A stretch of DNA of 64,000 nt from Ostreococcus lucimarinus (GCA_000092065.1 CP000592.1); one strand, 5' to 3'. Positions 1,626 through 39,795 are shown, numbered from the stretch's first letter. Program-made: numbers and translations. The notes: a model not told the origin generated them from the letters alone.

Positions 1626-3242
1626 GTGCGGCGATCGACGCGCGCGGCGTCGACAGACGACGACGCGCGAGGCGCGTCTCGCGGCGCGGCGCGCATGGCG
1701 GACGCGGCGACGCGCGCGGGCGCGTCGGCGAGCGCGTCGGCGAGCGCGAGCGCGCGCGACGCGCGAGCGCGCGACGGCGGCGCGCTGCGATGCGAGTTTC
1801 GAGTGATGCGACTGCGCGCGCCGGCGTACGAACACGCGGGCGCGCGCGAGGGACGCGCGATCGACGACGGAGACGACGGTGACGACGCGCGCGCGACGCG
1901 CGGCGCGCGAGCGAGCGGCGCGGACGCGGACGCGGACGCGGGACGGAACGACGACGACGACGCGCGGCGACGACGCGAACGCGAGACGACGAGCGGCGAG
2001 CTGACGCTGCCGCAATCGTTCGGCGCCGTCGCGCTGGGCGAACGGTTTAGCTCGTTCGTGACGTTTGGGAATTTTTCAGAGCCGACGAGCGGGGCGAGCG
2101 GGACGGCGCGGGAGATCGGGATCAAGGTGGAGCTGCAGACGGAGACGCGGCGAACGACGCTGCGAGACGGGACGAAGACGCCGATTGAGACGCTGCGACC
2201 GGGGGAGAAGGTGGATTTGATCGTCACGAAGGATTTGAAAGAGCTCGGCGCGCACACGCTGGTGTGCTCGGCGACGTATTACGACGCCGCGGGGGAGCGG
2301 AAGTATTCGCCGCAGTATTTCAAGTTCAACGTGGCGAATCCGCTGAGCGTGCGAACGAAGGTTCGCGCGGCGCCGCGCGGGCGCGCGTTTCTCGAGGTGT
2401 GCATCGAAAATACGACGAGGTATGCGTTGTTGCTCGATAGCGCGCGCTTCGATACGGTGGATGGGATCTTGGCGAAGGACATGACGCCAGAATTCGGCGG
2501 CGCCGCGGCGACGCTCCACGGCGTCGACGACTCCCCGGACGCCGGTTTACCTTCGCTCGGTAAGCGCGCGGTGTATCGCCTCGATCCATCGACCGGGGCT
2601 GCGCACTATCTTTTCGAAATCACGCGCGCGAACGCGAGCGAGGAACCGCTGACGCCGCAGACACAGCTCGGAAAACTCGAGCTCCGCTGGCGCGGCGCCA
2701 TGGGCGATCCCGGCCGGTTGCAGACGCAAGTCATCACCGCCGGCAGCGCGGGATCGACCGCTCCCTCCCCGGTCGCGGCGAAGATGCGTCAGTCGATCAT
2801 CGTCCACCCACGACCGCCCGACGCCGAGGACGTGAGCACGGTGTACGCGGAAACGCCGTTCATCCTGCGCGCCGCCGTCGAGGCCCTCGCGCCCATCAAA
2901 GCCGACGCCTGCGTCGTCCGCGTCAAAGATGTCGTCTCCGGCGTCTACATCGACGGTCCGCGCGCGGTGCGCGTCGGCGCTTTATCCCCTGGACAAACCG
3001 TCAACGTCGACATTCCGTGCGTCGCGCTCGGCTTGGGCGTCCAAACGTGCCCGTCCCTCGTCCTCTGCGACGCCGTCGACGACGCCGCGCGCGCGGCGCC
3101 CGCGCCGTTGGAAGTCTTCTCCGTCATCCCGCCCCCGTCCGTCGTCCTCGACGCGCTCAAACGCGTCGAAACCATCGACGTCGCGTCGCCGCCCGTCGAC
3201 GTCGCGCCGTCGCTCGACGCACCGATCGACTCGCTTTTGTAA
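1626..3242 (+). CDS. TRAPPC13: TRAPPC13-like protein (DUF974 family), carrying an Asp/Gly/Arg-rich low-complexity insertion
   Basis: GELTLPQSFGAVALGERFSSF, HTLVCSATYYDAAGERKYSPQYFKFNVANPLSVRTK and GRLQTQ align with conserved blocks of metazoan TRAPPC13. The exact start is uncertain; other in-frame Met codons sit near 1695. Confidence 0.6.
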   Translation: MRRSTRAASTDDDARGASRGAARMADAATRAGASASASASASARDARARDGGALRCEFRVMRLRAPAYEHAGAREGRAIDDGDDGDDARATRGARASGADADADAGRNDDDDARRRRERETTSGELTLPQSFGAVALGERFSSFVTFGNFSEPTSGASGTAREIGIKVELQTETRRTTLRDGTKTPIETLRPGEKVDLIVTKDLKELGAHTLVCSATYYDAAGERKYSPQYFKFNVANPLSVRTKVRAAPRGRAFLEVCIENTTRYALLLDSARFDTVDGILAKDMTPEFGGAAATLHGVDDSPDAGLPSLGKRAVYRLDPSTGAAHYLFEITRANASEEPLTPQTQLGKLELRWRGAMGDPGRLQTQVITAGSAGSTAPSPVAAKMRQSIIVHPRPPDAEDVSTVYAETPFILRAAVEALAPIKADACVVRVKDVVSGVYIDGPRAVRVGALSPGQTVNVDIPCVALGLGVQTCPSLVLCDAVDDAARAAPAPLEVFSVIPPPSVVLDALKRVETIDVASPPVDVAPSLDAPIDSLL

Positions 3243-3288
3243 AATACGCCGCCGCCTCGCCGCCGCCGCACACATCGTCGCGCCGCGC

Positions 3289-4197
3289 ATGCTCTGCGCG
3301 CGTTCGCCCGCGAGCGTCCCCCGCGTCGTCTCCCGCGCCTTCTCCGCGCCCCGTCGCGCGTCGACGCGCGACGCGCGACGCTCCAGCGCGCGTTTCCTCG
3401 CGCGCGCGTCCGCCGTTCCCCCGGCGCGCGAACGCGTCGCGTCGCTCGAATCTCGCGCGACGACGCGCGCGATGGCGCCGCGCGCGCCCGCGAGATCGCG
3501 ATCGCGATCGTCCGCGCGCGCGAGGGCGTCGAGCGGCGGCGCGGACGACGCGGCGGCGCGGTACGGGTTGGCGAACGCGGAGCGCGGCGTCGCGCTGCGG
3601 TGGCTCCCGACGTTTTTGACGCTCCTGCGCGTCGCCGCGGTGCCGCTGCTCGCGGCGGTGTATTACAGCGATCTGGCGAACGCGGCGCCGATCGCGGGGA
3701 CGATGTTCATCGGCGCCGCGATCACGGATTGGTTGGACGGATACCTGGCGAGACGGTTGAAGGCGAGCAGCGCGTTCGGCGCGTTTTTGGATCCGGTGGC
3801 CGATAAGCTCATGGTCGCCGCGTCCCTGTGCCTGCTGTGCACGCACGCGCCGCGAGGCGTCGCGGCGTGGGCGGTGGCGGTGCCGTCGATCGTCATCATC
3901 GGACGCGAGATCACCATGAGCGCGCTGCGAGAGTGGTGCGCGGCGAAGGGCGGCGAGGCGCACGCCGCCGTCAAGGTGAATAATCTCGGTAAATACAAGA
4001 CGGCGACGCAAATGGTGGCGCTGAGCGTGTTATTACTCGTCAGAGACGGGTCGGACTTCTTCGCGAACGGGGCGCACGATGCTTTGTTGGTGCGAGGGGG
4101 CGTGTGGTGCCTCTGGATCTCCGCCGCGTTGGCTTTGATTTCGTTGTGGGTCTACATGAGCGGCGTCATCGGAATCATGCTCAAATCCGATGATTAA
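3289..4197 (+). CDS. CDP-diacylglycerol--glycerol-3-phosphate 3-phosphatidyltransferase (PGP synthase, CDP-alcohol phosphatidyltransferase family), with an Arg/Ser/Ala-rich N-terminal presequence suggesting organelle targeting
   Basis: The CDP-OH phosphatidyltransferase motif D-G-x2-A-R-x8-G-x3-D-x3-D is present in ITDWLDGYLARRLKASSAFGAFLDPVADK, with multiple TM helices. The ORF extends upstream in-frame to 2929 and overlaps the TRAPPC13 3' end, so the start was placed at the first ATG after that gene (3289). Confidence 0.7.
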   Translation: MLCARSPASVPRVVSRAFSAPRRASTRDARRSSARFLARASAVPPARERVASLESRATTRAMAPRAPARSRSRSSARARASSGGADDAAARYGLANAERGVALRWLPTFLTLLRVAAVPLLAAVYYSDLANAAPIAGTMFIGAAITDWLDGYLARRLKASSAFGAFLDPVADKLMVAASLCLLCTHAPRGVAAWAVAVPSIVIIGREITMSALREWCAAKGGEAHAAVKVNNLGKYKTATQMVALSVLLLVRDGSDFFANGAHDALLVRGGVWCLWISAALALISLWVYMSGVIGIMLKSDD

Positions 4198-4313
4198 TCG
4201 TTCGTCGGTCTGTGTGTTATGTATGCTCTATGCTATGGTAGCGCGTGTGAATATGTTTTGCTCTTGTGATGATGCATGTTGTCTTGCGTTACGCGCTCTC
4301 GACGCGTCGCGCA

Positions 4314-6329
4314 TCACCCTTGTTCCATTTTCTGCGAGAGAATCTTGAAGCGTTCTTCGGCGGCGACTCTTTCGCGCAACTCTTTCGCGCCTTGACGATC
4401 GGGGTGGAAGCGCAACAACGCTTTCCTGTACGCGCTACGTAGTTGCTTCGCGTTCGCGTGCGCGCCACCTTCGACCGCGACGCCGAAACACTCGAGAGTC
4501 TCCGCCAAATTTAACGAAGCCACCTTCGTCTCCCATTCTCGTCTAAATTCTTCCCTAATTGAGTCGGTGCTTTGCTCTTCTTCGTGTCGACTCTCCCGCG
4601 CTTCCCGAAACGTCGCGACTCTACTTTCAGCGGCTTTGATCAAATCTTCAGCCGCCTTTGCTTTTTGCTCTTCTCGCCGCCGGCGTTGCGCTTGCGATTG
4701 CTCCTCTTGCTCCGCAGCCTTGATAAGCGCTTGTGCGTCGATTTCCTCCCGCCGCCGCGCAAGAATCGCGCCAACGGCATCGCTGACGATCCATTTCTTA
4801 CTCACGAGCATGTTGAACACTTCTTGTAGCAAAACAGGCTCCCCCAAGCCGCGCGAGTGCGCCGCGTCGTCTTCCAACACCGCCCCGAGAGCGTTGCAGA
4901 GCAGATTGGCGCGCTCGGAACCGTTTTCAGCCAGCTTGAACGCGGTTTGCGCGCTCTTTAACGCTACTCCATGCGCAATCGCAATGGCCGATATCAATTC
5001 CGCGTTTGAATCGTCCAAGAACTCTGTTTCCTCTTCTCTCGCAGACGTCGGCGCCGCCGCCGCCTGCGACTGCGTGCCCCGGGCGAACGACACTAAATCG
5101 TCGATGGATGAGTTCGACCCCGTTGCGAGCGGCGATTTCGGAAGCTTTTCTAGCGGCGACTTGCCCTTGTCTGCGCGCATACTCGACATGGTCGGCTCTT
5201 TTCGCGAGTGCGTGTACGTGTACGGAGGCGGTGTCGGCGGCGCACCGTCGAAGTCTGGTTCGGAGCACGGTTTCAGCGTTCCCGGACACAGCATCAAATC
5301 TACCCACATGTCAGATCCTTCCTCGGCGAAAATAACGCGAGCCGAATTTCTCCCACAGTAGTACTCCCCACGAACTAATCGACACGGCACGCCCGCGCTC
5401 GCCGCTAAAGTTTTGAACAAAATCGCTCGATGGCGTTCGACTCCCTTGGATAAATGCCCGACATGCAGACAACATCCCGACTGACTGCTCGCGTTCAACA
5501 GCTGCTCGCGATCCTCCGCCGTCGCGAGCACAAGGGTTGGATCGTCGATGGTCTTCACGGACCCGCCCAAACGATCGCTCACCAATCTGGCCAGCGCAGC
5601 GCACCGGGCCCGTACGTTCGGCACCTGCGAGCACGTCTCCCGCGCCAACTCGTCGAGCGCGTTCAAAAACATATCCGTGCGCCTGTCCACGACGAAAACT
5701 TCCTCCGTCGCCGTGACCGGTGGCCTCTTGAGCAGATCTCCGAGCGCGGGCAATTGTCCATCCACTGAACTCTCGAACGCGTCGCCCCAGACGTCGTAAA
5801 ACCCGTCGCACGTCTCATCCAAGACTTCGTCCGCGTCGAGCGCTTGCGAGATCCAAAACTTTGACGCCAAGCTTTGCCCCTTACCCCGTCCTTTTCCCGC
5901 GGCATCCGCGGCATCAAATTCCAGCTCCACCGCCAGCACATCCGCGCTCGTCTCTTTCGTGCTCGCCTCGAGCGCGAACTGCATTTCGCGCGCGTCGAAG
6001 CCATCCGTTCGCGCGCGCGCCGAAGCCGTCGCGCGCGCAGCCGTCCCGCCCGCGTCCAGCGCGTCCACTTGGTACATCGCCGACGCCGCCTCGTCCGTCG
6101 ACATCGGCGGCGCCGCGCGCATCGCGTTGACGGTAAACGGCGCGCCCGCGCCATCGCCGCGCTCTTTTCGTCGTTTCAGTCGCGCTGCGTCGCGACGTTT
6201 GCGATTGATTACGTCAGTCCTCTGGTGGTTAAAAGTTGACCGAACGCGCGTCGTCGCGTCGTCGCGCGCGTCGAGCGCGCGTCGAGCGCGTCGAGCGCTC
6301 CGAGACGTACACTTTATCGATTTGAGCAT
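4314..6329 (-). CDS. Protein with an EDR1/CTR1 N-terminal-type domain and a C-terminal DnaJ (J) domain; no kinase domain
   Basis: The central block FWISQALDADEVLDETCDGFYDVWG ... GHLSKGVERHRAILFKTLAASAGVPCRLVRGEYYCGRNSARVIFAEEGSDMWVDLMLCPGTLKP matches the EDR1 domain found N-terminal to plant CTR1/EDR1 kinases. The C-terminus LRSAYRKALLRFHPDRQGAKELRERVAAEERFKIL is a J-domain with the HPD motif. Confidence 0.6.
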   Translation of the reverse strand: MLKSIKCTSRSARRARRALDARDDATTRVRSTFNHQRTDVINRKRRDAARLKRRKERGDGAGAPFTVNAMRAAPPMSTDEAASAMYQVDALDAGGTAARATASARARTDGFDAREMQFALEASTKETSADVLAVELEFDAADAAGKGRGKGQSLASKFWISQALDADEVLDETCDGFYDVWGDAFESSVDGQLPALGDLLKRPPVTATEEVFVVDRRTDMFLNALDELARETCSQVPNVRARCAALARLVSDRLGGSVKTIDDPTLVLATAEDREQLLNASSQSGCCLHVGHLSKGVERHRAILFKTLAASAGVPCRLVRGEYYCGRNSARVIFAEEGSDMWVDLMLCPGTLKPCSEPDFDGAPPTPPPYTYTHSRKEPTMSSMRADKGKSPLEKLPKSPLATGSNSSIDDLVSFARGTQSQAAAAPTSAREEETEFLDDSNAELISAIAIAHGVALKSAQTAFKLAENGSERANLLCNALGAVLEDDAAHSRGLGEPVLLQEVFNMLVSKKWIVSDAVGAILARRREEIDAQALIKAAEQEEQSQAQRRRREEQKAKAAEDLIKAAESRVATFREARESRHEEEQSTDSIREEFRREWETKVASLNLAETLECFGVAVEGGAHANAKQLRSAYRKALLRFHPDRQGAKELRERVAAEERFKILSQKMEQG

Positions 6330-6464
6330 GCCGCGCGACGCGCGAGACGCGCGCGCGTGTGCGGGAGTCGGGAGAACGCGTCGGGACCGGAGCGGGACGC
6401 GCGAGCGCGTTTTACGCGTTACATGCGTCGCGCGCGCGACGTCGAAATTTGCGGGCGCTAGTTG

Positions 6465-6479
6465 CTAGATTAAAGACGA

Positions 6480-6518
<39 letters not shown>

Positions 6519-7184
6519 GGGCGCCGGCGTCGGCGCGCCGCCCGCGCTCGCCGACGACTTGGCCACGCACAACCACCCCAGAAACACGTACATCAACATC
6601 ACCGGATACACCGCCAGCGCCCTTCTCGACGCCGGCATCGCCGCGCTCACGAACGGCACGCTCGCTTTACTGCTCCACGTCACCGCCGCCGCGACGACGA
6701 TGAATCTGTACACCTTATTCTCGCTCGCCAGGCACAGCGCGCTCGCCAGGCACAGCGGCACCACGCAGTACCCCAACAGCGCCACGCTCTGCAAGAATAT
6801 GATCTTCCCGCCCAGCAACAGCACGTTCGCCGTCAGCGCCACCGCGCCGAGCCCGACCGTCGCGAAGACGACGCTGAACGTCTCGCTCGCGTTCGCCGCG
6901 CCGCCGCTCAGCGTCGCGCTCAGCGTCAGCACGAACGCCAGCGGTCCCCACAGGTCCCACTCTCGCAGCCGCGTCGCGCCGTTCGCCCCCCAGTTCATCG
7001 GCAGCAGCACCGCCGCGCAGTTTCGCCGCACCACGGCGCAATCGCGCCTGACGGTGGCCCAAATCGTTTCATCCAGCGTCCCGAACGCGAGATCGCTCGT
7101 CTCGCTCGCGCCCACGCGCGCGCGCTCGATCTCGTGCTCGCGCGACGCGAACAGCGGCACCGCGTCGCCGAGCGCGCCGTTCAT
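6465..7184 (-). CDS. YIPF6: Yip1-domain protein (YIPF6-like), ending in a (Thr-Pro)n tail
   Basis: LREWDLWGPL..., LLGGKIIFLQSVALLGYCVVPL and RRALAVYPVMLMYVFLGWL match YIPF6 conserved blocks, with 5 TM segments. The C-terminal PTPTPTPTPTP is encoded by a hexanucleotide repeat. Confidence 0.7.
6483..6540. repeat. (GGCGTC)n hexanucleotide microsatellite lying inside the 3' coding end of the Yip1 gene, where it encodes (TP)n
   Basis: Direct tandem repeat gcgtcggcgtcggcgtcggcgtcggcgtcggcg visible in the sequence. Confidence 0.7.
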
Positions 7185-7327
7185 CGCGCGGCGCGAGTCC
7201 GCGCGCGCGCGATGCGCGGTCGCGATGTGACGCGACGGCCGATGATGCCCTAACGCGCGTCACATCGCGACCGCGCCTCGCGCGCGCGTCCGCGGCGCGT
7301 CGCGGCGACGCGATTCGACGCGCGCGA

Positions 7328-9028
7328 ATGTTCGCGACCGCGCGCGCGCCCGGCGCGGCGGCCGGCGCGGCGACGCGCGCGACGCGACGGGGAAATCAAC
7401 GCGAGGGCGCGACGACGCGCGCGGCGACGACGACGACGCGACGCGCGATGCGCGTGCGCGCGCGCGCGGCGTGCAAACTGACCACGTCCGTCATCGCGCC
7501 GAACCTGGAGCTCGCGCTGCGGGACGTGGACGACGCCGTGAGGAAGGGCGCGGACGTCGTGGAGCTCAGGGTGGATTTCTTGCGCGACGACGCGGCGCGC
7601 GGGACGCTGGGCGACGCGATCGAAGCGCTGATTAAAGCGTCGCCGGTGCCGGTGATCGTGACGAATCGACCGACTTGGGAGGGAGGGCAAGATGATGGGG
7701 ACGAGAGCGCGCGGTTGGAGGCGCTTTGGAGGGCGCACGAGTGCGGGGCGGCGTACGTGGATTGCGAGGCGCTCGCGGCGGAGCGATTCTTCGCGGCGAA
7801 ACCGGCGACGGCGACGCTGAGGAATGGGAAGACTAAGATCATTTTGAGCTCGCATAATTACGATGAGACGCCGAACGATGAGATTTTGGCGGAGATTCAC
7901 GCGAAGTGCGTGCGCTTGGGGGCGGATATCGTCAAGATGGCGTCGGTGTGTAACGCGGTGGAGGACGTGGCGCGATTGGAGAAGCTCTTGCGCACGAAGG
8001 GAAGGGAGATCGAGACGATCGTTTTGGGCATGAGCGAGCACGGACAAGTGTCTCGATTGCTCGCGGCGAAGTTTGGAAGCTTTTTGACGTTCGGGGCGAT
8101 TCGAAGAGGGGAAGAGAGCGCACCGGGGCAGCCGTTGCTCGAAGAGCTGCGAGATTTGTATCGCGTGCCGACGCAGACGGCGGCGACAAAGGTGATGGGC
8201 GTGATCGGGAACCCGATCGGACACAGTAAGTCACCGGCGTTACACAATCCTTGTCTCGCCGCCGCGGGCGTGGATGCGTGCTACGTCCCGTTACTCGTCA
8301 AGGATATCAAAACCTTTCTCGCGTCGCCGCTCTTCGGGTCGAAGGACTTTGTGGGGTTTAGCGTGACGATTCCGCATAAGGAAGACGCCTTGGAGTGCTG
8401 CGCCGAGGTCGACCCCGTGGCGAAGCAAATCGGCGCGGTGAACACGTTGGTTCGTCAACCGGATGGATCGTTAAAGGGTTACAACACCGATTATGTCGCC
8501 GCGATCGAGGCTATCGAAAACGCGATGGAGAAGAAAACGGGCGTCGCCGCCGCGAAGTCCTTGGCTGGGAAAACAGTCGTCGTCATCGGCGCCGGCGGTG
8601 CGGGCAAGGCTTTGGCGTTCGGCGCTAAGTTTAAGGGCGCCAACGTCGTCATCGCCAATCGCAGCGTCGAGCGCGCACAGGCGCTCGCTGACGCGTGCGG
8701 CGGCGTCGCGGTGTCGCTCGAAGATTTAGCGAGCGGTAGCGTCGTCGGCGACGTCTTGGCCAATAGCACCTCGGTCGGGATGCAACCGAACGTTGAAGAC
8801 ACGCCGACGCCAGCGTCTGTACTCGGAGGGTTTTCCGTCGTCTTCGACGCGGTGTACACCCCGCTCGAGACGCGGCTCTTGCGCGAAGCCAAGGCGAGTG
8901 GGTGCGAAATCGCGAGCGGGCTGGACATGTTCGTCGGGCAAGCGGCGAGGCAGTTCGAGCTCTTCACCGGGAAAGAGGCCGAGGTTGAGCTCATGCGCGA
9001 CGCCGTGTTGTCGAGCATAAAAAGGTAA
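7328..9028 (+). CDS. Bifunctional 3-dehydroquinate dehydratase / shikimate dehydrogenase (plant-type DHQ-SDH) with a plastid-like transit peptide
   Basis: The N-terminal half is a type I DHQase (VVELRVDFL, AAYVDCE, KIILSSHNYDETP, KMASV). The C-terminal half is a shikimate dehydrogenase (GVIGNPIGHSKSPALHN, GAVNTL, NTDYVAAIEA, VVVIGAGGAGKALAFGA, ANRSVERAQALA). The N-terminus is Ala/Arg/Thr-rich. Confidence 0.88.
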   Translation: MFATARAPGAAAGAATRATRRGNQREGATTRAATTTTRRAMRVRARAACKLTTSVIAPNLELALRDVDDAVRKGADVVELRVDFLRDDAARGTLGDAIEALIKASPVPVIVTNRPTWEGGQDDGDESARLEALWRAHECGAAYVDCEALAAERFFAAKPATATLRNGKTKIILSSHNYDETPNDEILAEIHAKCVRLGADIVKMASVCNAVEDVARLEKLLRTKGREIETIVLGMSEHGQVSRLLAAKFGSFLTFGAIRRGEESAPGQPLLEELRDLYRVPTQTAATKVMGVIGNPIGHSKSPALHNPCLAAAGVDACYVPLLVKDIKTFLASPLFGSKDFVGFSVTIPHKEDALECCAEVDPVAKQIGAVNTLVRQPDGSLKGYNTDYVAAIEAIENAMEKKTGVAAAKSLAGKTVVVIGAGGAGKALAFGAKFKGANVVIANRSVERAQALADACGGVAVSLEDLASGSVVGDVLANSTSVGMQPNVEDTPTPASVLGGFSVVFDAVYTPLETRLLREAKASGCEIASGLDMFVGQAARQFELFTGKEAEVELMRDAVLSSIKR

Positions 9029-9107
9029 GCGTGTAGCGGCGTTGTTGGATACAAAATGCGATAATAATATTCTTACAACGAGACATTGTACAGCGCGCTC
9101 GTTCGTC

Positions 9108-9929
9108 TTACGCCGCGAGTTCGAGCGCTTCGAGCGCCTTGGCCGCGAGCGCAGCCTTTTGCGCCTCTTTCGCCGCGTGCTCCTCTTCGCGTCGACGCAA
9201 GCGCGCCGCCGCCTTCGCCGCTTCCTTCTCCTGTTTTTTCTGCTTGCTCTCCGCCCGCTTCGCGCTCTTCGGACCGAGCTTGCCCGGCGACGTCGACCGC
9301 GCCGAGACGCGTCGTCCATCGTCCCCGACCGCCCTCGGCGCCGACGCCGGCGACGCCGACGCCTCCCCGTCGTGTTTCGGCGGTTTCTTCTTCGCCGCCG
9401 CCGTCGCCGCCGGCTCTTTCCCTCGCCCGCTCGCCGTCGGTCGCGCGTAGCTCCTCGAGCCTCCGTTCGACACGAACCCCCCTCGACCAAACTTTCGATT
9501 CCCCAGCACCAGCCTTCGCGCGCGCCCCCGCATCAGCGCCTCCTCCAGCGCATCGCTCCCATCGCTCCCGTCGCTCCCGTCTCGCCCGTCCTCGTCGCCG
9601 TCGTCCCATCCCTCGCCCTCGCGTCCCCTCGTCGCCCACCGCGCGCGCCGCAGCAGGCACAGCGACTCCTCCTGCATCCCCCCGTCCTCGAGCGCGCGTC
9701 CGTCCAGCGCGCGTCGCACCAGCACGCGCTCGCACGACGCCTGGCACAGCGGGCACCGCGTCCGCGCCCCCGCGCGCGTGAACTCGGCCCACTTGGTCAC
9801 GCAGGACGCGCAGAACGCGTGCAGGCACGCCACGACGAGCGCGACGTCGCGCGCGTCCGGGCGCGCGAGGCAGACGGCGCACGTCGGCGACGCGCGCGCG
9901 TCGTCGTCGTCCGGCGCGACGCGCGACAT
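9108..9929 (-). CDS. RING-finger (C3HC4) protein with Lys/Glu-rich C-terminal coiled-coil
   Basis: CAVCLARPDARDVALVVACLHAFCASCVTKWAEFTRAGARTRCPLCQ is a RING signature. The ORF extends upstream to 10664 as antisense of the EamA gene, so the start was set at the Met immediately before the RING (ATG 9929-9927). Confidence 0.5.
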   Translation of the reverse strand: MSRVAPDDDDARASPTCAVCLARPDARDVALVVACLHAFCASCVTKWAEFTRAGARTRCPLCQASCERVLVRRALDGRALEDGGMQEESLCLLRRARWATRGREGEGWDDGDEDGRDGSDGSDGSDALEEALMRGRARRLVLGNRKFGRGGFVSNGGSRSYARPTASGRGKEPAATAAAKKKPPKHDGEASASPASAPRAVGDDGRRVSARSTSPGKLGPKSAKRAESKQKKQEKEAAKAAARLRRREEEHAAKEAQKAALAAKALEALELAA

Positions 9930-10151
9930 GGCGCGCGCGACGTCGCGCGGCGCGACGGCGAGTGCGGCGCGCGTCAACGGATAAGCCGCGCGACGCGACG
10001 CGACAGCGCGACGCGCGACGCGCGCGAACGGCGCGACGACATGCGAGCGACGCGCGCGGGGATTTATCTCTAGCTCTTCGCGGCGCGCGCGCGGCGCGAG
10101 GGCGCGCGCGAGGGCGCGCGCGGGACGGCGGCGGCGGCGGGACGGGACGGG
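9930..10151. promoter_or_regulatory. Putative bidirectional promoter region between the divergent RING (-) and EamA (+) genes
   Basis: A 222-bp head-to-head intergenic gap. Similar short divergent gaps occur at 1393-1625, 7185-7327, 55104-55201 and 58982-59433. Confidence 0.3.
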
Positions 10152-31586: not shown

Positions 31587-32102
<516 letters not shown>

Positions 32103-32431
32103 TCACGTCGTTCTTTCGTCGAACGCGCGCGCGTCTTCGCGTTCCGCGTCTCTTTTCCCGCGTCTCGTCTGCGCGCGCGCCCCGCTCCTGGATCTTCACC
32201 ATCGCCCGCGCGTGATCTTCCACCGCCCACGTCCCGCGCGCGCCTGTCCCGCGCCGTCCGACGCGCGCGACCGATGTGACGGATATCCACGCATCATCCG
32301 AGCGCCCGCGCGACGCCCGCGCGACGTCGCGCGCGCGCGCGGCGTCCCGATTCCGTCTGAACATCCATCTTGTCGCGAACGATCTCACGTCGCGTGCGTC
32401 CGCGTCGTGCGTCGCGCGCGACTCGACGTAC

Positions 32432-32497
32432 CATCAGAATCCGCATCTCCTTCTTGGAGAACAGGCGCTGGAAGAGTTTGGCGAACGTGATGCCCAT
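32432..32497 (-). CDS. ARF1: ADP-ribosylation factor 1, exon 1 (MGITFAKLFQRLFSKKEMRILM), followed by a GTACGT donor
   Basis: ATG at 32497-32495. The exon ends ...CTGATG|GTACGT, giving a 365-nt intron (32067-32431). Joined to exon 2 it yields a 181-aa ARF with the myristoylation site Gly2. Confidence 0.85.
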
Positions 32498-32718: not shown

Positions 32719-33720
32719 TCACGCGCCGTCGACGGCGTCGTCGCCGAGGGCGGCCTCGGGCGGCTTGGTCTTGCCGGAGACTTCCTGCGCTAAAATCGAA
32801 GCCAAGTACTTGCCGTGCTCTTCGATGGCGGTTTGTAAGCGACGCTGCGCGATGAGCTGGTCGTGGAGCTGCTTTTGCATCTCGAGCTGTTTCAGCAAAG
32901 CGTGGCCGACGTGAGGCATGTCTTCGATGAGTTCCGCGCTGACGACGGCGGCGGCGGCCTCGTCCGACAACGTCGCGGCGGGCTTGAGCGCTTGGGCTAA
33001 AATTGCGTCCAAGGCATGGATTTTACCCTCCGATCCCAGCGTTTTGGCCTTCATCGCGGAGGTGCTATTCAAGAGCTCGGACAACTGCGCCGTCGTCACC
33101 GGCGTCGACGGCGGATCGCTCGATAAACCACTACCCATCGGCGCCGCGCTCGCGACGTCCAAACCCATCAAATCTGCCTCGCTCGCCCGCTGTTTCATCT
33201 CCGCCTGCTGTTGCACGCGCGCGCGTTTTATCATCGCGCGTCTCTCGCGATCAGCCTCGGCGTCGAGCTCGGCGCCTCGCGACCCGCCGGCGCCCTCCTG
33301 TAACCTATACTTTTGCAAGTGCGACTTGATGTGTTGAATAGTCATCCCGCTCATGGCCATGATATGCATGATGCCTTTCGGCGTCGCCAGCTCCAACCCC
33401 CCCAACTGATTCACGGCGTTGATAAACTCTCTGTGCAACTCCGGCGTCCATCGCAAGCGCGCGCCGCCTCGACCGTTCCTCCCCCGCGTCGCGTTTCCCT
33501 CCTTCCCTCGTCCCGCGTTCGCCTTCGCGCGCTTCTCCTGCCCCGACGTCGACGCCCGCGCGTCCCCGCTCGCCCTCGCTCGCTTCCTCCCCCCCCCCCG
33601 GCCGTCGTTCGCCCGCGTCCCGTCCCTCGCGTCGTCGTCGTCCTCCGCCGCGTCCTCGCCGAGCGCGTCCTCGTCCTCGACCCTCCCGCTCGTCGCGCCG
33701 CGCACGATGACGTCGTCCAA
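32719..33720 (-). CDS. MYB-CC (GARP/G2-like, PHR1-like) transcription factor
   Basis: The GARP DNA-binding domain [21 protein letters not shown]...[29 protein letters not shown] (SHLQKYR motif) is present, together with a downstream LHEQL-type coiled coil ([29 protein letters not shown]). This family is restricted to Viridiplantae. Confidence 0.75.
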
Positions 33721-33811: not shown

Positions 33812-34234
33812 GCCTCGACCTCGGTCGCGTCGTCGGTCCATCGCGTCGCGTCGCGCTTTCGTCGTCGCGCGCGCGCGTCGTCGGGCGCGTCGTCGCGCGC
33901 ACCAGCGTGTCGTCGACCGCGCCGTCGAGCGCGCCGTCGCCGGCGCCGGCGAGGCCCTCGAACAGGGGCCAGAACCGTTCGTCCGCCATGTGCGGAATAT
34001 TCGTCGCCGGGCGCGCGCCGCGATCGATCGCGATTCGCGTTCGCGAACCTCGAGTCGAGGGTCGCGAACGACGCGCGACCCTCGTCGCGAGCGTCGATCG
34101 CGATCGATCGCGATCGATCGCGCGGCGCGCGATCGGGGCGACGTGATCTATGTGTGACTGTTTGTGCGTATGCGGTCGGTCGGACCCGGCGACGGCGAAC
34201 GCCGGCGCGCGTCCTCGCGCCATCGCGCGACGCG

Positions 34235-37200
34235 ATGGAGCGCGCGATCGCGGCGTCGCGCGAGGACGCGCGCGCGCACGCGCTGGCGGCGTCCAGGGGC
34301 GACGCGCGCGCGGCCGTGCGCGCGTGCGTGAGCGCGACGGAGCGATTGGCGATCGGCGCGCGCGCGGGACGCGCGGCGCGAGGGCGACGGCGACGGCGCG
34401 ACGGCGACGGGGGAGGGCGCGCGCGCGGCGACCGGGATGGGGCGCGCGAGGGCGCGGACGCGAGGGGCGACGCGTCGGCGTCGGCGTCGAGGTCGAGCGA
34501 CGAAGATGACGACGACGACGACGACGACGAAGACGACGACGACGACGACGAGCGCGAACGAATCCTCGCGGACGTGTGCGCGTGGGTGAAGCGCGCGCGC
34601 GCGGAGATCGGGTTGGACGCGTTTCGGTTCGAAAGCGCGGCGGGCGCGCGCGAGGCGGCGGCGGAGGCGCTTTCGGAGGATGATTTGGACGACGCGTTGG
34701 CGCAGGTGGAGTACGCGTCCGACGGGTGGGAGACGGCGCCGGACGATCGAAGTCAACGCGCGTCCGCGGGCGGGTCGCGCGCGAAACAGTCGTGCGCGGT
34801 GGTGAGTGATGTGTTCAGTCAACTCGCGGGCGGCAGAGGCGGCGGAGGCGACGAGGATGAGGAAGTCGACGCGGGCGCGAGGGCGGACGAAGACGGCCGA
34901 GTCACGGATGGGGAGGAAGATTTCGCGGGCGGGACGCAAGCGTTTGAAGATTTCGACGACGACGACGAACCGGTCGTTGGAACGCAAGCGCTGGAAGATA
35001 TCGAGGCCGATTTCATCGGTGGCACGCAAGTCGTGGAATCACCGATGAAGCGCGCGTCGCCGACTGGGCTGAAACTCTCGGCGTCGCCGCTGACGCTTCC
35101 AAGGACGAAGAAGTCGAGCGAGCGAGCGAGCGAGGCACCGTCGATCCCGGCGGCACCGACGTCGCTGTGGGCGGTGGCGTCGAACACGCCGCCCGAAGAG
35201 CGGGCGCGCCGCGAGAGGGTAGGACACACGCGCGGATTAGTGGACAGAGCCTCGGTGCCGCGCGCGAACGCCGACACGCAACCGACGATGGGCGTCGAGG
35301 ACGCAGACGAGGGCGACGACGACGACGCGCGCGAAAACGATGGAACCACCCTGCTTTCGACTTTCAACGATTCAAAGCGCGTCGATTGCACGCCCATCGA
35401 TGCGATGACTGAGCAGCCGAGTAAGCCCCCGACGCTGAAGCGACCCGGGGCGATGCGGGCGCCGACGCACGAGCACTCGTCCATGGTGACGGCGTCGGCG
35501 CGACCACTGGGCTCGATCGGCTCCGAACACGGCGAAGTCATGGGCGTCGCGCGCACGGCGATCGAGGCCGTCAAGCGCGCGCGTGCGAAAATGAATGAAC
35601 CTCTCGGGTTGGATATGTCGATGCCGCAGTGCGACGACGATTCGCAGCTCGTCGACGACGACGCGGACGACGTCGTCGAGGCGACACCAATGGCGGCCGA
35701 GGGAGAGGACGACGCTTTGGTCGGAGACGGGCCGGAATCGGCACCGAGCTCACCAGACATCGGCATGCTCTATTCACAGCGACCGATGAACGACGACGAC
35801 GAGGACGTCGCCGACGTCGCGTCGCCGCAGCGACCGCACACCCAACACTCGCAGTCGCCGTTCAAGAGACAGTTGATCCATTCGCTCGCCCCGCCCATGT
35901 CACAGCCCGAGGTGGAGTCGCCTCGCAGTAGAATCATGCTTTCGCAGCACCAATGGCGTCAGCCGAGGCGTCGAGCCCCACCGCCACCTAGATTTGACGA
36001 AGAAACTCCGTCAAAGCGGTATAAAATCATCGACGACGACTTGTCGCAGTCGATGACGCAAGGGACGCAAGACGAACCCGCGAGTCAGGGTGAATTCGTG
36101 GATTGCAGTCAGCGAGAAAACGAAGGTGGTCTGATTCGACCGAGGATATCGAGTTTACCCGCGCCGACGGTTGTCAACCGAACCACCGCGGCGAGCGGCT
36201 GTCGCATCGTCGCGCCTTCTCCTTCCGAGAAGACGCCGTCCAAGGACGAAATAGAACGGCCATTGCCGCCGCTCGGGTGTCCAAAGTGTCGTCACGCCGT
36301 GAAAGGGTGCGGGCGATGCCGGACGATACGCGAAAACGCAAAGAATGGTATTTGGCCGAGCGGGCGCGGAAGATCAAAAAAGTCTTCGGTGGATTCCGCG
36401 AGCGCGGCGTCAGCGTCGAAATCAAGCGCTCGACGCGCGACGCACTCGGCGTCAAAAACACCTGCGTCCAAAACGCCGATGTCCAAAACGCCGATGTCCA
36501 AGCGTACGAAGACCGCGGCTGGGAAGGAAAACAAGCCAAACAAGCGCTCGTCGGCGAAGATGTTCGCGTCGCTTCATTTCCTCTTGTCCGGCCTCGGCAA
36601 AGTTGGCACCGCGACGAAGGATATCATCAAAGCGCACGGAGGCACGGTATTGAGCGAACCTTCTTCGGACATATCGGTGAACTCGGTCATCGTCGTCACA
36701 CCTACGATGGGACGAACGATGAAATGCCTCTACGGCATCGCCGCGGGCGCGCGATTCGCCACGCCGGCTTGGGTCGAGGCGTGCGCGGACGAAGGTCGAA
36801 TGATTCAAATCGACGAGCCCCTCGATGCCGAAGGAAATCCTAGAGAACATCATCGCGCGTGCTTGGGTAAGCTCTTCCGCGACGTGAAGGCCGCCATCAC
36901 GGGCAACGAAGGGTTCGTTAAAGACTTCACCTCGCTCCTGTCGCACGCCGGCGCGACGCTCGAGCGCAACCCGCAAACAGACGATCGATTCGATTACCTC
37001 ATAACTCAGAGCGGTGAAAACCCCCACTCGGCTTGGATTCGAGCGTCGAAGCGACTGGGCGTACCGTGCGTGCGTCACGAGTGGCTCGTTGACTCTATTC
37101 TAGCCGGCGAGTTGCTGGACGTCGCGGCGTACGCCACGCTCGCCTCGCCGCCGAACGCGCGCGCGTCGATTCCCCCCCACTCTTCCTTATCCGACGCCTC

Positions 37201-37243
37201 GCGAGAGCGCGCGAATCTTCGAAGAAAATCAACCAGATACTAG
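34235..37243 (+). CDS. MDC1/PTIP-like DNA-damage mediator candidate: acidic N-terminal region, a cluster of TQ(xF) motifs, a Lys/Ser/Thr-rich linker and C-terminal tandem BRCT domains
   Basis: Three TQ motifs occur within 60 aa (GGTQAFEDF, VGTQALEDI, GGTQVVESP). The poly-Asp/Glu tract (34501-34556) is encoded by (GAC)n. The C-terminus has two BRCT folds (FASLHFLLSGL...WVEACADEGRMIQI and KAAITGNEGF...VRHEWLVDSILAGELLD). The start was set at MERAIAAS because the ORF is open back to 33419 across the divergent Myb gene. Confidence 0.6.
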   Translation: MERAIAASREDARAHALAASRGDARAAVRACVSATERLAIGARAGRAARGRRRRRDGDGGGRARGDRDGAREGADARGDASASASRSSDEDDDDDDDDEDDDDDDERERILADVCAWVKRARAEIGLDAFRFESAAGAREAAAEALSEDDLDDALAQVEYASDGWETAPDDRSQRASAGGSRAKQSCAVVSDVFSQLAGGRGGGGDEDEEVDAGARADEDGRVTDGEEDFAGGTQAFEDFDDDDEPVVGTQALEDIEADFIGGTQVVESPMKRASPTGLKLSASPLTLPRTKKSSERASEAPSIPAAPTSLWAVASNTPPEERARRERVGHTRGLVDRASVPRANADTQPTMGVEDADEGDDDDARENDGTTLLSTFNDSKRVDCTPIDAMTEQPSKPPTLKRPGAMRAPTHEHSSMVTASARPLGSIGSEHGEVMGVARTAIEAVKRARAKMNEPLGLDMSMPQCDDDSQLVDDDADDVVEATPMAAEGEDDALVGDGPESAPSSPDIGMLYSQRPMNDDDEDVADVASPQRPHTQHSQSPFKRQLIHSLAPPMSQPEVESPRSRIMLSQHQWRQPRRRAPPPPRFDEETPSKRYKIIDDDLSQSMTQGTQDEPASQGEFVDCSQRENEGGLIRPRISSLPAPTVVNRTTAASGCRIVAPSPSEKTPSKDEIERPLPPLGCPKCRHAVKGCGRCRTIRENAKNGIWPSGRGRSKKSSVDSASAASASKSSARRATHSASKTPASKTPMSKTPMSKRTKTAAGKENKPNKRSSAKMFASLHFLLSGLGKVGTATKDIIKAHGGTVLSEPSSDISVNSVIVVTPTMGRTMKCLYGIAAGARFATPAWVEACADEGRMIQIDEPLDAEGNPREHHRACLGKLFRDVKAAITGNEGFVKDFTSLLSHAGATLERNPQTDDRFDYLITQSGENPHSAWIRASKRLGVPCVRHEWLVDSILAGELLDVAAYATLASPPNARASIPPHSSLSDASRERANLRRKSTRY

Positions 37244-37496: not shown

Positions 37497-38420
37497 ATGT
37501 TTCAAAATTCGAAACTTCCCGCGTACGCGCACGTCTACACGCGCTTCAGCATGAACTTAAACCAGCCCCTGGACTTCGCCGCGAAACTGGCGACGTGCGT
37601 CGTGCTGTGGGAGATCCCGCGCGCGCTGTCGAGCGCGATGGTGCGTAAGACGTACGGCGCGACGACGAGGGAAGAGGAGAAACGCTTCGTCGCGGCGGCG
37701 CCGGCGTACGTAATGTCGACGCTGCACGCGCTCGTCGTCGCCACCGCGGGGCTGAAAATCGGGTACATCACGGTGATGTTGCCGAACGCGAACGATCGGT
37801 ACTACTTGCACGCGAAAACCGCGTTCAAGCTGGCGGATTTGAAATTTATCGAGCGGTGGAATTGGGCATTCTGCGGGTACATGTTCGGCGACTTGTTGCA
37901 CGTCTTAAAGGAGTACCCGCGGCTCGGCAAGATGGACATGGTGGTGCATCACGCGTGTTTCATCGCGTGTTCGCTGCTCGCCGGCCACTCGCAGACGATG
38001 ATGCTACCGTTTTCGTGGTTGCTGTTGGGCGAGTACTCCACGCCGATTTTGTGCGCGCGTTGGTTGATTCAACAGTTGACGTACGAGTTGAAGAGCGACG
38101 TCGTCGTGCGATGGGCGCGCGCGTGTGGATACACGGGCGACGCCGTGAGCTCAGTGACGAATGCTGGGAAACAACTGGAATTTGGCTGCAGCGTCGGGTT
38201 CATGATCGTCTTCTTTCTCGTTCGCATCGTGGCGTACACCGGAGGATTCGCGAGCATGCTCGCGGCGTGGCGAGGCGGCGTCCTCGACCCGATCCCGAAA
38301 TCCGTCACCAACACCCTATTCGTCCTCGTCGCGTGCGGGGCGGGATTAAATTATTACTGGTTTTCGATCATGGTTCGCAAAGCCCTGCGCGGGCCGCCGA
38401 AACCGAAGAAAGATGAATAG
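37497..38420 (+). CDS. TLC-domain (TRAM/LAG1/CLN8-like, TLCD/TMEM56-type) membrane protein, paralog 1
   Basis: HHACFIACSLLAG and LLLGEYSTPILCARW match the TLC His-His and E-x-STP-x5-RW motifs, with 6 TM segments. The C-terminus is KALRGPPKPKKDE. Confidence 0.6.
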   Translation: MFQNSKLPAYAHVYTRFSMNLNQPLDFAAKLATCVVLWEIPRALSSAMVRKTYGATTREEEKRFVAAAPAYVMSTLHALVVATAGLKIGYITVMLPNANDRYYLHAKTAFKLADLKFIERWNWAFCGYMFGDLLHVLKEYPRLGKMDMVVHHACFIACSLLAGHSQTMMLPFSWLLLGEYSTPILCARWLIQQLTYELKSDVVVRWARACGYTGDAVSSVTNAGKQLEFGCSVGFMIVFFLVRIVAYTGGFASMLAAWRGGVLDPIPKSVTNTLFVLVACGAGLNYYWFSIMVRKALRGPPKPKKDE

Positions 38421-38916
38421 CGGACAAGTGGCGCAAACCATCCGCCGCGTCGACGCGCGCCCGTCTCGGTCGCATCACTCTTAGCACGATTTCATAGTAC
38501 ATACATCATCACAACAAAACAAGTAACATTCACGACGAATCCACGACGACACGCACCACATCGCGCGACCGTCTCGCGGTCACATCACCGAAAGCGCGAC
38601 GGCGCCCCCCGCGCCCGGCCGATTGAAGCCACTGTCCCCTTCCACGTAAATCCATCCTCGCTTCCATCCGACGCAGCACAAAACGATGAGCGCGAACCCG
38701 ACGCAGCCGAACACCGCGCCGAGGGTCTCGCTCGTCGTCGTCGCCGTCGTCGCCATGTCCGTCGCCGTGTGCCGAGTCAACTCGACTTTAAATTTCAAAT
38801 ATCTTCGACGCTTCATAATCCCGCGCGCGCGCGCGCGCCGCGCGAGCGCGCGCCGCGCGAGCATGTTCCGACGATCGCCCGCGCCGCGTCGCGCGCGCTA
38901 CGCCGGGCCACGCGCG

Positions 38917-39795
38917 ATGAATCCCGCGGAGAATCCGATGGATTTTTTGAAAAAGTTGCTCGTCGCGGTGCTCGTGTGGGAACTCGTGCGGTTCGTCATC
39001 GCGCGCATCGCGCTCGTCGTGCTGCCGAAGCGCGATGATGAAGACGAAGAGACCGCGCGGGTGCGGTTCGAAGCGCCGAAGCAGTACACGGGCGCGGTGC
39101 ACGCGCTGGTGGTGAGCGCGCTGGCGGCGAAGCTGTTGCGCGCAGTCGTCGCGCTGGACGAAGCGGCGGATATGTATTACATTCGCGGTGCGGGGATCGG
39201 GATGGATGATGGGACGAGAGACTTGTTGGAACTCACGAATTGGTTGTTCTTGGGGTACTTGGTGCAAGACACGACGCACATCGTGCGGAATTTTCCGAGG
39301 ATGGGCAAAGCGGACATGTTGGCGCACCACTGCGTGTTCATGGTGGCGTCTATTTTGTCCGGTGCATCGCAGACTATGATGCTGCCGTTCTGCTGGTTGT
39401 TGCTCGGTGAAGCGTCGACACCGCTGCTGACGCTTCGCTGGACGATTCAAAGCGCGGCGTATTCGCTCGAGAGCGAAAAGGTGGTCAAGGTGGCCAAGGC
39501 GTTTGGATTCAAGGGCGAACGCGTGAGCTCGCCTAAAAACGCTGGAAAGCAGTTGGAGTTTTTCGCCGGTCTCATGCTCGTTTTCACGTTTTTCCTCGCG
39601 CGAGTGGTGACGTATAGCTTAGGTTACACCCACATGCTTTGGGTGCGACACAAGGGCATCATCGACGCGGTGCCAGCGAGCGTCGCGCTGCCGCTCAACG
39701 TCCTCGTCGGCGCCGGCGCCGGTTTAAACGCGCATTGGTTCGGCATCATGATCCGCAAGGCTATCAAAGGGCCGCCCAAGCCGAAAGAGGCGTAG
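38917..39795 (+). CDS. TLC-domain membrane protein, paralog 2 (tandem duplicate of 37497-38420)
   Basis: Collinear with paralog 1 (HHCVFMVASILSG, LLLGEASTPLLTLRW) and with the same C-terminal motif KAIKGPPKPKEA. The start was set at MNPAENPMDF by analogy with paralog 1; the ORF is open from 38686. Confidence 0.6.
   Translation: MNPAENPMDFLKKLLVAVLVWELVRFVIARIALVVLPKRDDEDEETARVRFEAPKQYTGAVHALVVSALAAKLLRAVVALDEAADMYYIRGAGIGMDDGTRDLLELTNWLFLGYLVQDTTHIVRNFPRMGKADMLAHHCVFMVASILSGASQTMMLPFCWLLLGEASTPLLTLRWTIQSAAYSLESEKVVKVAKAFGFKGERVSSPKNAGKQLEFFAGLMLVFTFFLARVVTYSLGYTHMLWVRHKGIIDAVPASVALPLNVLVGAGAGLNAHWFGIMIRKAIKGPPKPKEA

Follow-up and report, generated by a model that had tools for sequence, protein, structure and literature searches.

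A BRCT-pair protein of Ostreococcus lucimarinus as a candidate Rad9/Crb2/53BP1-type mediator from an uncharacterised green-lineage family

Introduction

Which protein carries the signal from phosphorylated H2A.X to its effectors in the green lineage? In plants and green algae 53BP1 is commonly said to be missing, and the same was said until recently of MDC1, and because of this the path is only partly known; 53BP1 has been termed 'animal-specific' (PMC9792525) and was not found in Arabidopsis (PMC11014961). In this article, I will consider a gene that raises the question afresh, at positions 34235-37243 on the plus strand of a 64,000-nucleotide (nt) stretch of Ostreococcus lucimarinus DNA (GCA_000092065.1 CP000592.1), referred to below, at its full length, as the window. 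The gene is a complete, intron-less open reading frame (ORF) of 1002 uninterrupted codons plus a stop, and an exact-sequence look-up finds its product identical to XP_001420694.1 / UniProt A4S5Z4 of O. lucimarinus CCE9901, which carries no annotation beyond 'predicted protein' or 'BRCT domain-containing protein'. An original prediction for this locus, made from the DNA alone, had the gene coordinates, the gene model and the green-alga origin all right, and saw in the product an MDC1-like checkpoint mediator. I will argue for another relationship: judging from its sequence relatives, the protein is best placed in an uncharacterised green-lineage family, which it represents in Ostreococcus, and it is somewhat more likely than not to serve the DNA-damage response as a mediator or adaptor of Rad9/Crb2/53BP1 type.

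The BRCT pair and its phosphoserine pocket

The C-terminal tandem BRCT that had been predicted is borne out by domain search, structural model and fold comparison alike. Pfam places a first BRCT domain at residues 777-850 (nt 36563-36784) and a second, as BRCT_2, at residues 880-966 (nt 36872-37132), with BRCT_3 in addition, and all of these exceed the curated cut-offs. AlphaFold2, given residues 674-975, models the pair with block-mean pLDDT scores (predicted local distance difference test) of about 78-96, mostly about 90 (about 90 or higher for the first domain), and in the PDB Foldseek matches the model, with E-values between 1e-10 and 1e-12, to BRCA1, 53BP1, BARD1, TopBP1 BRCT7/8, MCPH1, MDC1 and Crb2.

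Conservation was read from an alignment (A1) of 14 Mamiellales orthologues, mostly from marine metagenomes; among them are a distant Micromonas-like protein and a cluster that contains MMETSP transcripts. The conserved blocks are the N-terminal helices, three TQ motifs, residues ~504-635, a cysteine knuckle, a K-T-P-x-S-K-T-P linker and the BRCT pair itself, in which S785-G786 (nt 36587-36592), R827-T828-M829-K830 (nt 36713-36724) and H948-E949-W950 of the second domain are invariant (M829 nearly so). The S/T and T-x-K positions of the pocket are retained family-wide in a second alignment (A4) of 13 diverse members, and S785-G786 and R-T-M-K830 are residues that I also take to correspond to the phosphate-binding residues of BRCA1 and 53BP1. 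S785-G786, R827, K830 and E949 match, position for position, the phosphate- and carboxylate-binding residues T1898/G1899, R1933, K1936 and E2063 of MDC1 (PMC11014961). With a phosphoserine pocket that appears intact, the pair would be of the phosphopeptide-binding kind.

An uncharacterised green-lineage family

Word-indexed searches with the full protein or with the BRCT region matched only close Mamiellales relatives. An exhaustive HMMER search of 1.84 billion representatives, using a Mamiellales-only profile that covers the knuckle, the BRCT pair and what lies between, gave 588 matches at E<=1e-3, and the best of these after the Mamiellales themselves form one coherent set, to which the sole exception in range is P0108, a multi-BRCT protein that reaches 2.3e-23 by summing four BRCT matches. 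Algal members combine the CxxC knuckle and the BRCT pair with a C-terminal BAH domain (P0141, from the trebouxiophyte [Myrmecia] bisecta, and P0109, P0120, P0126, P0154, P0155 and P0158); the ferns Ceratopteris and Adiantum and the gymnosperm Ginkgo contribute BRCT + BAH proteins; a large angiosperm set of roughly 1000-1100 residues has the C-terminal BRCT pair without BAH; and Micromonas and Bathycoccus-like proteins belong here as well. Nearly all of these green-lineage matches outrank 53BP1-type and BRCA1/BARD1-type proteins with the Mamiellales-only profile, and the named members (Ceratopteris A0A8T2UTD8, Adiantum A0A9D4ZFM2, Ginkgo Gb_23942, Abrus XP_027342886.1 and [Myrmecia] bisecta KAK9823735.1) are all 'uncharacterised' or 'BRCT domain-containing'.

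The relationship also holds in the reverse direction. A profile built exclusively from family members outside the Mamiellales recognises the O. lucimarinus BRCT pair with 108 bits (E 3e-35) and the Micromonas protein with 145 bits; among full-length matches, Bathycoccus-like proteins score 81-95 bits, 53BP1-type outgroups 61-74 and a RING + BRCT protein 50. Full-length profile-profile comparison reported the BRCT pair only. The BAH domain of the relatives is most like those of PBRM1, DNMT1 (BAH1), BAHCC1, EBS/SHL and ORC1, several of which read methyl-lysine, and it is likely to be a histone-mark reader. Pfam finds no BAH domain in the O. lucimarinus protein, whose ORF ends 36 residues past the BRCT pair, with the next gene beginning at 37497.

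Among the best 120 of 196 angiosperm matches there is no Brassicaceae sequence, nor were grasses seen there. Possibly Arabidopsis has no member, which would account for the silence of BRCT surveys in that plant on the family, and because work has centred on Arabidopsis the family has perhaps been overlooked. A literature search for a plant or algal BRCT + BAH protein, a 53BP1-like protein, or H2A.X in Ostreococcus returned nothing relevant.

A disordered region rich in kinase-target motifs

Between its ends the protein looks like a scaffold. The full-length AlphaFold2 model has low overall confidence and shows N-terminal helices followed by disorder until the BRCT pair, with no beta-sandwich domain, and this succession is the typical layout of a mediator. 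The disordered region holds three closely spaced TQ motifs, GGT234QAFED, VGT250QALED and GGT264QVVES (nt 34928-35035; T234 at 34934, T250 at 34982, T264 at 35024), and here the original prediction was correct in the number of motifs, in naming the first as TQAF and in calling the surroundings acidic, with 19 D/E against 2 K/R in the 56 residues around the triplet. Three TQ within 31 residues were reached by 21 of 20,000 composition-preserving shuffles and four GTQ by none of 20,000, and the triplet is invariant or almost invariant across the 14 orthologues. The strict TQxF form is limited to the first motif, the others being TQAL and TQVV, and across the orthologues position +3 is taken by a hydrophobic residue (F, Y, V, L, M or I). 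This GTQ-x-hydrophobic triplet is a candidate set of ATM/ATR sites, in the pT-x-x-hydrophobic form that FHA domains read.

More striking than this local cluster is the enrichment of the whole protein in glutamines preceded by serine or threonine (S/TQ), which account for 18 of the 28 glutamines where 4.2 would be expected, a fourfold enrichment reached in 0 of 10,000 shuffles. A second and larger cluster, with 12 S/TQ within residues 514-626 (nt 35774-36112), falls in the best-conserved disordered segment (near-invariant columns 504-635), which contains SSPDIGLLYSQRP, TQHSQSPFK and SQPEVESPRSRIMLSQHQWRQPRRRAPPPPRFDEETPSKR-RIIDDDLSQ-TQ-TQ and is rich in SP/TP as well. An S/TQ cluster is usually defined by at least three S/TQ per 100 residues, a density that this protein reaches both with 3 in 31 residues and with 12 in 113. 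The enrichment is fourfold or more in the Ostreococcus and Micromonas proteins (0 of 2,000-10,000 shuffles), weaker in other chlorophytes and nil in land plants, and for that reason the kinase-target region is to be seen as lineage-specific. The concern attached to the original prediction, that the best homologues might lack TQ clusters, applies in part, since the land-plant relatives have none.

One could read these features in another way, as those of a phosphoprotein-binding scaffold that works outside the damage response, in replication, transcription or the cell cycle, with an S/TQ richness that stems from composition or serves other kinases. Tandem BRCT domains do occur outside damage signalling, the protein carries many SP/TP sites (19 in all), its land-plant relatives are not S/TQ-enriched, and the BAH domains of its relatives most resemble those of the chromatin regulators PBRM1, DNMT1, BAHCC1 and EBS. 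Yet the S/TQ enrichment lies far above composition-preserving shuffles and its positions are conserved, and the closest solved BRCT pairs all come from damage-response proteins, so I consider this scaffold reading improbable and prefer that of a damage-response mediator.

53BP1, Crb2 and BRCA1/BARD1

If it is a mediator, of which class? The family profile built from alignment A4 was searched against all PDB sequences, and 53BP1 scored 77 bits (E 1.3e-20), aligned across the entire BRCT pair and also through the long insertion of the first domain, followed by S. pombe Crb2 (Rhp9) with 60 bits (E 2e-15), aligned at full length. Behind these stand BARD1 (53 bits, aligned from about profile position 59), BRCA1 (50 bits, from about position 70), PTIP (45 bits, partial), Brc1 (44 bits, over most of the profile, positions 44-211) and Mdb1 (40 bits, partial). 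In the sequence searches the genuine 53BP1-type proteins P0136 (from a nematode) and P0170, each with an Hsr-9 Tudor and a BRCT pair, outrank P0161, the single RING + BRCT protein checked, with both the Mamiellales-only and the non-Mamiellales profile, and Pfam BRCT_3, which scores highest on Hsr-9/53BP1-type proteins, is above its cut-off in the O. lucimarinus protein.

Several observations weigh against assigning this protein to the Rad9/Crb2/53BP1 type. The Mamiellales-only profile cannot separate the families in the PDB (BARD1 31, TopBP1 30.8, Crb2 30.2 and 53BP1 29 bits), the single O. lucimarinus sequence does not discriminate between them either (BARD1 top, E 5e-4), and Foldseek, which scores every canonical tandem BRCT alike, confirms the fold without distinguishing the family. 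The affinity to 53BP1 and Crb2 is for this reason a property of the wider family that reaches the O. lucimarinus protein through its membership. The N-terminal region shares collinear motifs with the land-plant family at an hhalign score that is modest (E 2.7e-4, probability 42%), those relatives are without S/TQ enrichment, no Tudor, BAH or other chromatin-mark reader is found by Pfam in the O. lucimarinus protein, and tandem BRCT domains are able to bind many phosphoproteins besides H2A.X.

The same non-discriminating searches leave some room for a protein derived from BRCA1 or BARD1 that has lost its RING and whose role is homologous recombination, not checkpoint mediation, since BARD1 is the top PDB match of the single sequence and, narrowly, of the Mamiellales-only profile, and BRCA1 heads the Foldseek list; plant BRCA1 and BARD1 also have a Cys-rich finger directly before the BRCT pair (PMC11014961). 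However, Pfam finds no RING, ankyrin or PHD in this protein, its four-Cys knuckle has nowhere near the length of an extended PHD finger, and the lead of BARD1 over Crb2, 53BP1 and TopBP1 with the Mamiellales-only profile is just 1-2 bits. The family profile instead favours 53BP1, by 24-27 bits, and Crb2, both aligned over their full length where BRCA1 and BARD1 join only from about positions 59-70, and the RING + BRCT protein ranks below the Tudor + BRCT proteins. A BRCA1/BARD1 descent is thus very unlikely, and a mediator of the Rad9/Crb2/53BP1 type is the reading that I carry forward.

MDC1 and its plant counterpart

The original prediction had compared the organisation of the protein to that of MDC1, and this comparison stands for the C-terminal tandem BRCT and at best in part for the TQ cluster, where TQxF is found in the first motif only; an MDC1-like organisation as a whole is not supported. 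The FHA domain, present in 119/119 metazoan MDC1 proteins surveyed (PMC11014961), has no Pfam match in the O. lucimarinus protein even at E<=10, and the AlphaFold2 model shows helices only at the N-terminus; a regex scan finds no SDT(D) motif, and there are no PST repeats among the coding tandem repeats. In plants the functional counterpart of MDC1 is BCP4, also known as XIP (At4g03130), with BCP3 as its paralogue; BCP4 carries TQ-x-hydrophobic repeats at its N-terminus, and the pocket of its BRCT pair reads R-T-R-N (PMC11014961, PMC9792525). A survey that included O. tauri and M. pusilla failed, in most chlorophytes, to identify BCP1 and BCP4 without ambiguity (PMC11014961).

Given that gap, the O. 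lucimarinus protein could fill the role, as a chlorophyte orthologue or functional counterpart of MDC1/BCP4 that reads phospho-H2A.X and, through phosphorylated TQxF, recruits an RNF8-like FHA protein. Its three acidic TQ-x-hydrophobic motifs resemble both the TQxF of MDC1 and the repeats of BCP4 (PMC11014961 source data), its R-T-x-K pocket has the pattern of MDC1 R1933-T-V-K1936, and the MDC1 structure 2azm gives the best target-normalised template modelling (TM) score in Foldseek, 0.80. The profile evidence points elsewhere: a profile made from the BRCT pairs of BCP4 (three sequences) and of a vertebrate MDC1 (one), all in the PMC11014961 source data, gives the O. lucimarinus pair 22.7 bits, against 108 with the green-lineage family profile, and MDC1 is absent from the PDB matches of the Mamiellales-only profile at E<=0.01 and appears with the family profile at a low score and in part (35 bits, E 1e-7). 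The EKE-x-GF-x-L linker signature, common by eye to the published MDC1 and BCP4 sequences, is missing here; FHA, SDTD and PST repeats are lacking, as said above; and the single strict TQxF has a +3 residue that varies among the orthologues. Patches such as LYSQRP, TQHSQSP, DGWET and DLSQ-TQ-TQ have, to the eye only, some likeness to the SQSQ, DWD and DTQ motifs of the BCP proteins.

Land plants, moreover, possess both BCP3/4 and the green-lineage BRCT family, and as the two coexist they are separate families; the signature motifs of the land-plant relatives, RWLGGW and CSVVPCS, do not occur in the BCP1/3/4 source-data file of PMC11014961. BCP4 orthology was rejected on the profile score of 22.7 bits, the R-T-M-K rather than R-T-R-N pocket and the differing motif content. 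I regard an MDC1/BCP4 counterpart, in short, as unlikely. What remains of the original prediction is the checkpoint-mediator class, which a scaffold with a kinase-target TQ cluster and a phosphopeptide-type tandem BRCT does fit, while orthology to MDC1 is unsupported (22.7 against 108 bits).

How the protein may work

As a Rad9/Crb2/53BP1-type mediator, the protein would use its C-terminal tandem BRCT to bind a pS-x-x-hydrophobic peptide, for which the likeliest target would be an H2A.X-type histone at damaged chromatin, phosphorylated on its C-terminal tail, as for 53BP1, Crb2, Rad9, MDC1 and BCP4, and this binding would anchor it there. ATM/ATR-type kinases could then phosphorylate both S/TQ clusters in the disordered region, turning the acidic GTQ-x-hydrophobic triplet into docking sites for effectors with FHA or BRCT domains, and TP sites beside the BRCT pair might place the protein under the control of cell-cycle kinases, on the model of Rad9-Dpb11 and Crb2-Cut5. 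Further interactions may be made by the N-terminal helical module and by the CxxC-x6-CxxC knuckle. A histone ending in SQE-hydrophobic was looked for in the 64,000-nt window and not found.

Further modules of the protein

The N-terminal module (residues 1-167, nt 34235-34735) is conserved among the 14 orthologues through the motifs GDA-AAV-A-VSA(S/T)ERLAI, V(K)-AR-E-GLDAF-FE, LSEDDLDDAL and VEYSS-GWET, is the part compared to the land-plant family by hhalign, and is predicted in the full-length AlphaFold2 model to form helices at residues 2-57 and 101-125 (pLDDT 63-75); it may mediate oligomerisation or the binding of a partner. Within it lies a (CGA)18 repeat (nt 34498-34551) found by Tandem Repeats Finder, which encodes a long Asp/Glu tract (residues 88-106) preceded by SS, possibly a CK2-type context, and which differs in length between orthologues. 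The poly-Asp tract said to adjoin the TQ cluster is a matter of two tracts: a short DDDD (nt 34954-34968) does lie inside the cluster, whereas the long D/E tract is ~128 residues upstream.

The knuckle GCPKCRHAVKGCGRCR (residues 681-696, nt 36275-36322) has the form CxxC-x6-CxxC with invariant C682, C685, C692 and C695 and a consensus, GC-KCR-x5-GCGRC, that is invariant in the 14 orthologues, and it is a probable zinc-binding module to judge from its cysteine pattern. Many chlorophyte relatives have it just upstream of the BRCT pair (P0141, P0114, P0115, P0109, P0120, P0155, P0158 and others). Pfam assigns no family to the knuckle or to proteins with tandem copies of it, the only match being a faint, sub-threshold one to the ULTRAPETALA1 zinc finger. 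Tandem copies occur in unrelated proteins, with 8 in P0106 (1635 residues), 4 in the protein kinase P0191 and 4 in the AAA ATPase P0212, and P0232 is among the knuckle-bearing proteins as well; by sequence the knuckle looks like an undescribed mobile zinc-knuckle module.

Between knuckle and BRCT pair, a 15-nt unit is repeated 3.7 times (nt 36447-36501; Tandem Repeats Finder, period 15) and encodes KTPASKTPMSKTPMSK, so the TP(A/M)SK repeat that had been noticed in the DNA is real. The copy number of TPxSK and the length of the D/E tract both vary among orthologues, and K-T-P-x-S-K-T-P (columns K741 to P748) is nearly invariant despite the varying copy number. The repeat supplies minimal proline-directed TP sites, of the cyclin-dependent kinase or mitogen-activated protein kinase (CDK/MAPK) type, and these lie in the basic linker that leads into the BRCT pair. 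Apart from this TPxSK unit, the coding tandem repeats are limited to (CGA)n tracts (Tandem Repeats Finder).

The last residues of the protein, RRKSTRY-COOH (nt 37220-37240), place a serine three residues before the C-terminal tyrosine, with the spacing of the S-Q-E-Y/F-COOH end of H2A.X. S-(T/C)-(R/K)-Y-COOH ends 58/81 Ostreococcus-clade sequences, and S-(Q/E)-E-hydrophobic-COOH ends 98/153 land-plant members (57 SEEI, 40 SQEI and 1 SEEF). In these land-plant members, P0142, P0163, P0145, P0131 and about 95 others, the H2A.X-like C-terminus directly follows the tandem BRCT. It is speculative, and suggested by the sequence pattern, that such a tail, once phosphorylated, is itself the ligand of a tandem BRCT, by self- or trans-binding; the tail does not dock on the pocket in the full-length AlphaFold2 model, which is uninformative because the modelled tail is unphosphorylated.

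The locus and its neighbours

The window is G+C-rich (about 55-70%), and for that reason long spurious ORFs cover the BRCT gene on both strands. Two antisense ORFs, 34148-35029 (-) and 34819-35766 (-), of 293 and 315 residues, overlap it; such ORFs are usual in this G+C-rich genome, and the two are almost certainly non-coding. An in-frame extension upstream of Met1 (an ORF from 33419) was considered and rejected, as the orthologues begin at the identical Met and the extension overlaps a gene on the opposite strand. That gene, 32719-33720 (-), encodes a MYB-CC (PHR1-like) transcription factor with a Myb DNA-binding domain and an LHEQLE coiled-coil, and is divergent from the BRCT gene with ~500 bp between the start codons. 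The shared upstream region holds a perfect tandem repeat (34085-34122; 2.9 copies, 100% match) of the palindrome-rich unit TCGATCGCGA, ~110-150 bp 5' of the ATG of the BRCT gene, which may be a promoter element.

Directly downstream are two tandem paralogues, 37497-38420 and 38686-39795 (+), which encode TLC-domain (TRAM/LAG1/CLN8) membrane proteins with 44% identity across 287 residues. Further upstream, an ARF GTPase gene, 31587-32497 (-), appears to be interrupted by an intron of ~365 nt: the first exon encodes MGITFAKLFQRLFSKKEMRILM from a Met codon that starts at 32497 on the minus strand, the intron donor is GTGCGT, and the remainder begins near 32066, after a CAG acceptor.

Discussion

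A conserved, uncharacterised family with a 53BP1/Crb2-like phosphopeptide reader and often a BAH domain is, on these sequence grounds, a plausible and concrete candidate for the missing mediator, and the question of whether plants and algae have a Rad9/53BP1-type mediator becomes directly testable. Ostreococcus is a good test bed: its protein is a simple one, the gene has no introns, and in O. tauri genes can be targeted through homologous recombination. Going further, one may tentatively picture an ancient green-lineage counterpart of 53BP1/Crb2/Rad9 that couples a 53BP1-class BRCT pair to BAH instead of Tudor, of which the Ostreococcus version, BAH-less and S/TQ-rich, would possibly be the main phospho-H2A reader, and in which the S-x-x-hydrophobic-COOH tail (SQEI/SEEI in angiosperms, STRY in Ostreococcus) would be a built-in mimic of phospho-H2A.X that autoinhibits or oligomerises the BRCT pair. 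I offer this larger picture as a possibility with the chances rather against it; if the H2A.X-like tail proves functional, however, it would be a novel way for a BRCT mediator to regulate itself.

How, then, does the protein compare with known systems? With BRCA1 and BARD1 it shares the BRCT fold and pocket, and BARD1 is the top match of the single sequence, but it differs in having no RING, ankyrin or extended PHD, and the two score 24-27 bits below 53BP1 with the family profile. In common with MDC1 and BCP4 it ends in a tandem BRCT and has TQ-x-hydrophobic motifs in an acidic setting as well as conserved patches, rich in SQ, within a disordered region, and its R-T-M-K pattern follows that of MDC1 where BCP4 has R-T-R-N; unlike in those proteins, the TQ motifs are internal (residues 234-264) rather than N-terminal, FHA, SDTD and PST repeats are absent, and the BRCT pair is of another class. 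Within the green-lineage family, the common ground is the BRCT pair, the CxxC knuckle upstream of it in chlorophyte members and the serine three residues before a hydrophobic C-terminal residue, whereas the O. lucimarinus protein is without the BAH domain of algal, fern and Ginkgo members and without the land-plant motifs RW(L/F)GGWT and PLCS-VPCS, and strong S/TQ enrichment is confined to the Mamiellales. From 53BP1, Crb2 and Rad9, finally, it differs in its own N-terminal helical module and CxxC-x6-CxxC knuckle and in the chromatin reader, since the BAH domain of its relatives follows the BRCT pair while Tudor precedes it, and the Ostreococcus protein has neither; what it shares with them is a long disordered N-terminal region with an S/TQ cluster, a C-terminal tandem BRCT with the S/T...R-T-x-K pocket, and relatives that carry a chromatin-reader-type domain in the same polypeptide.

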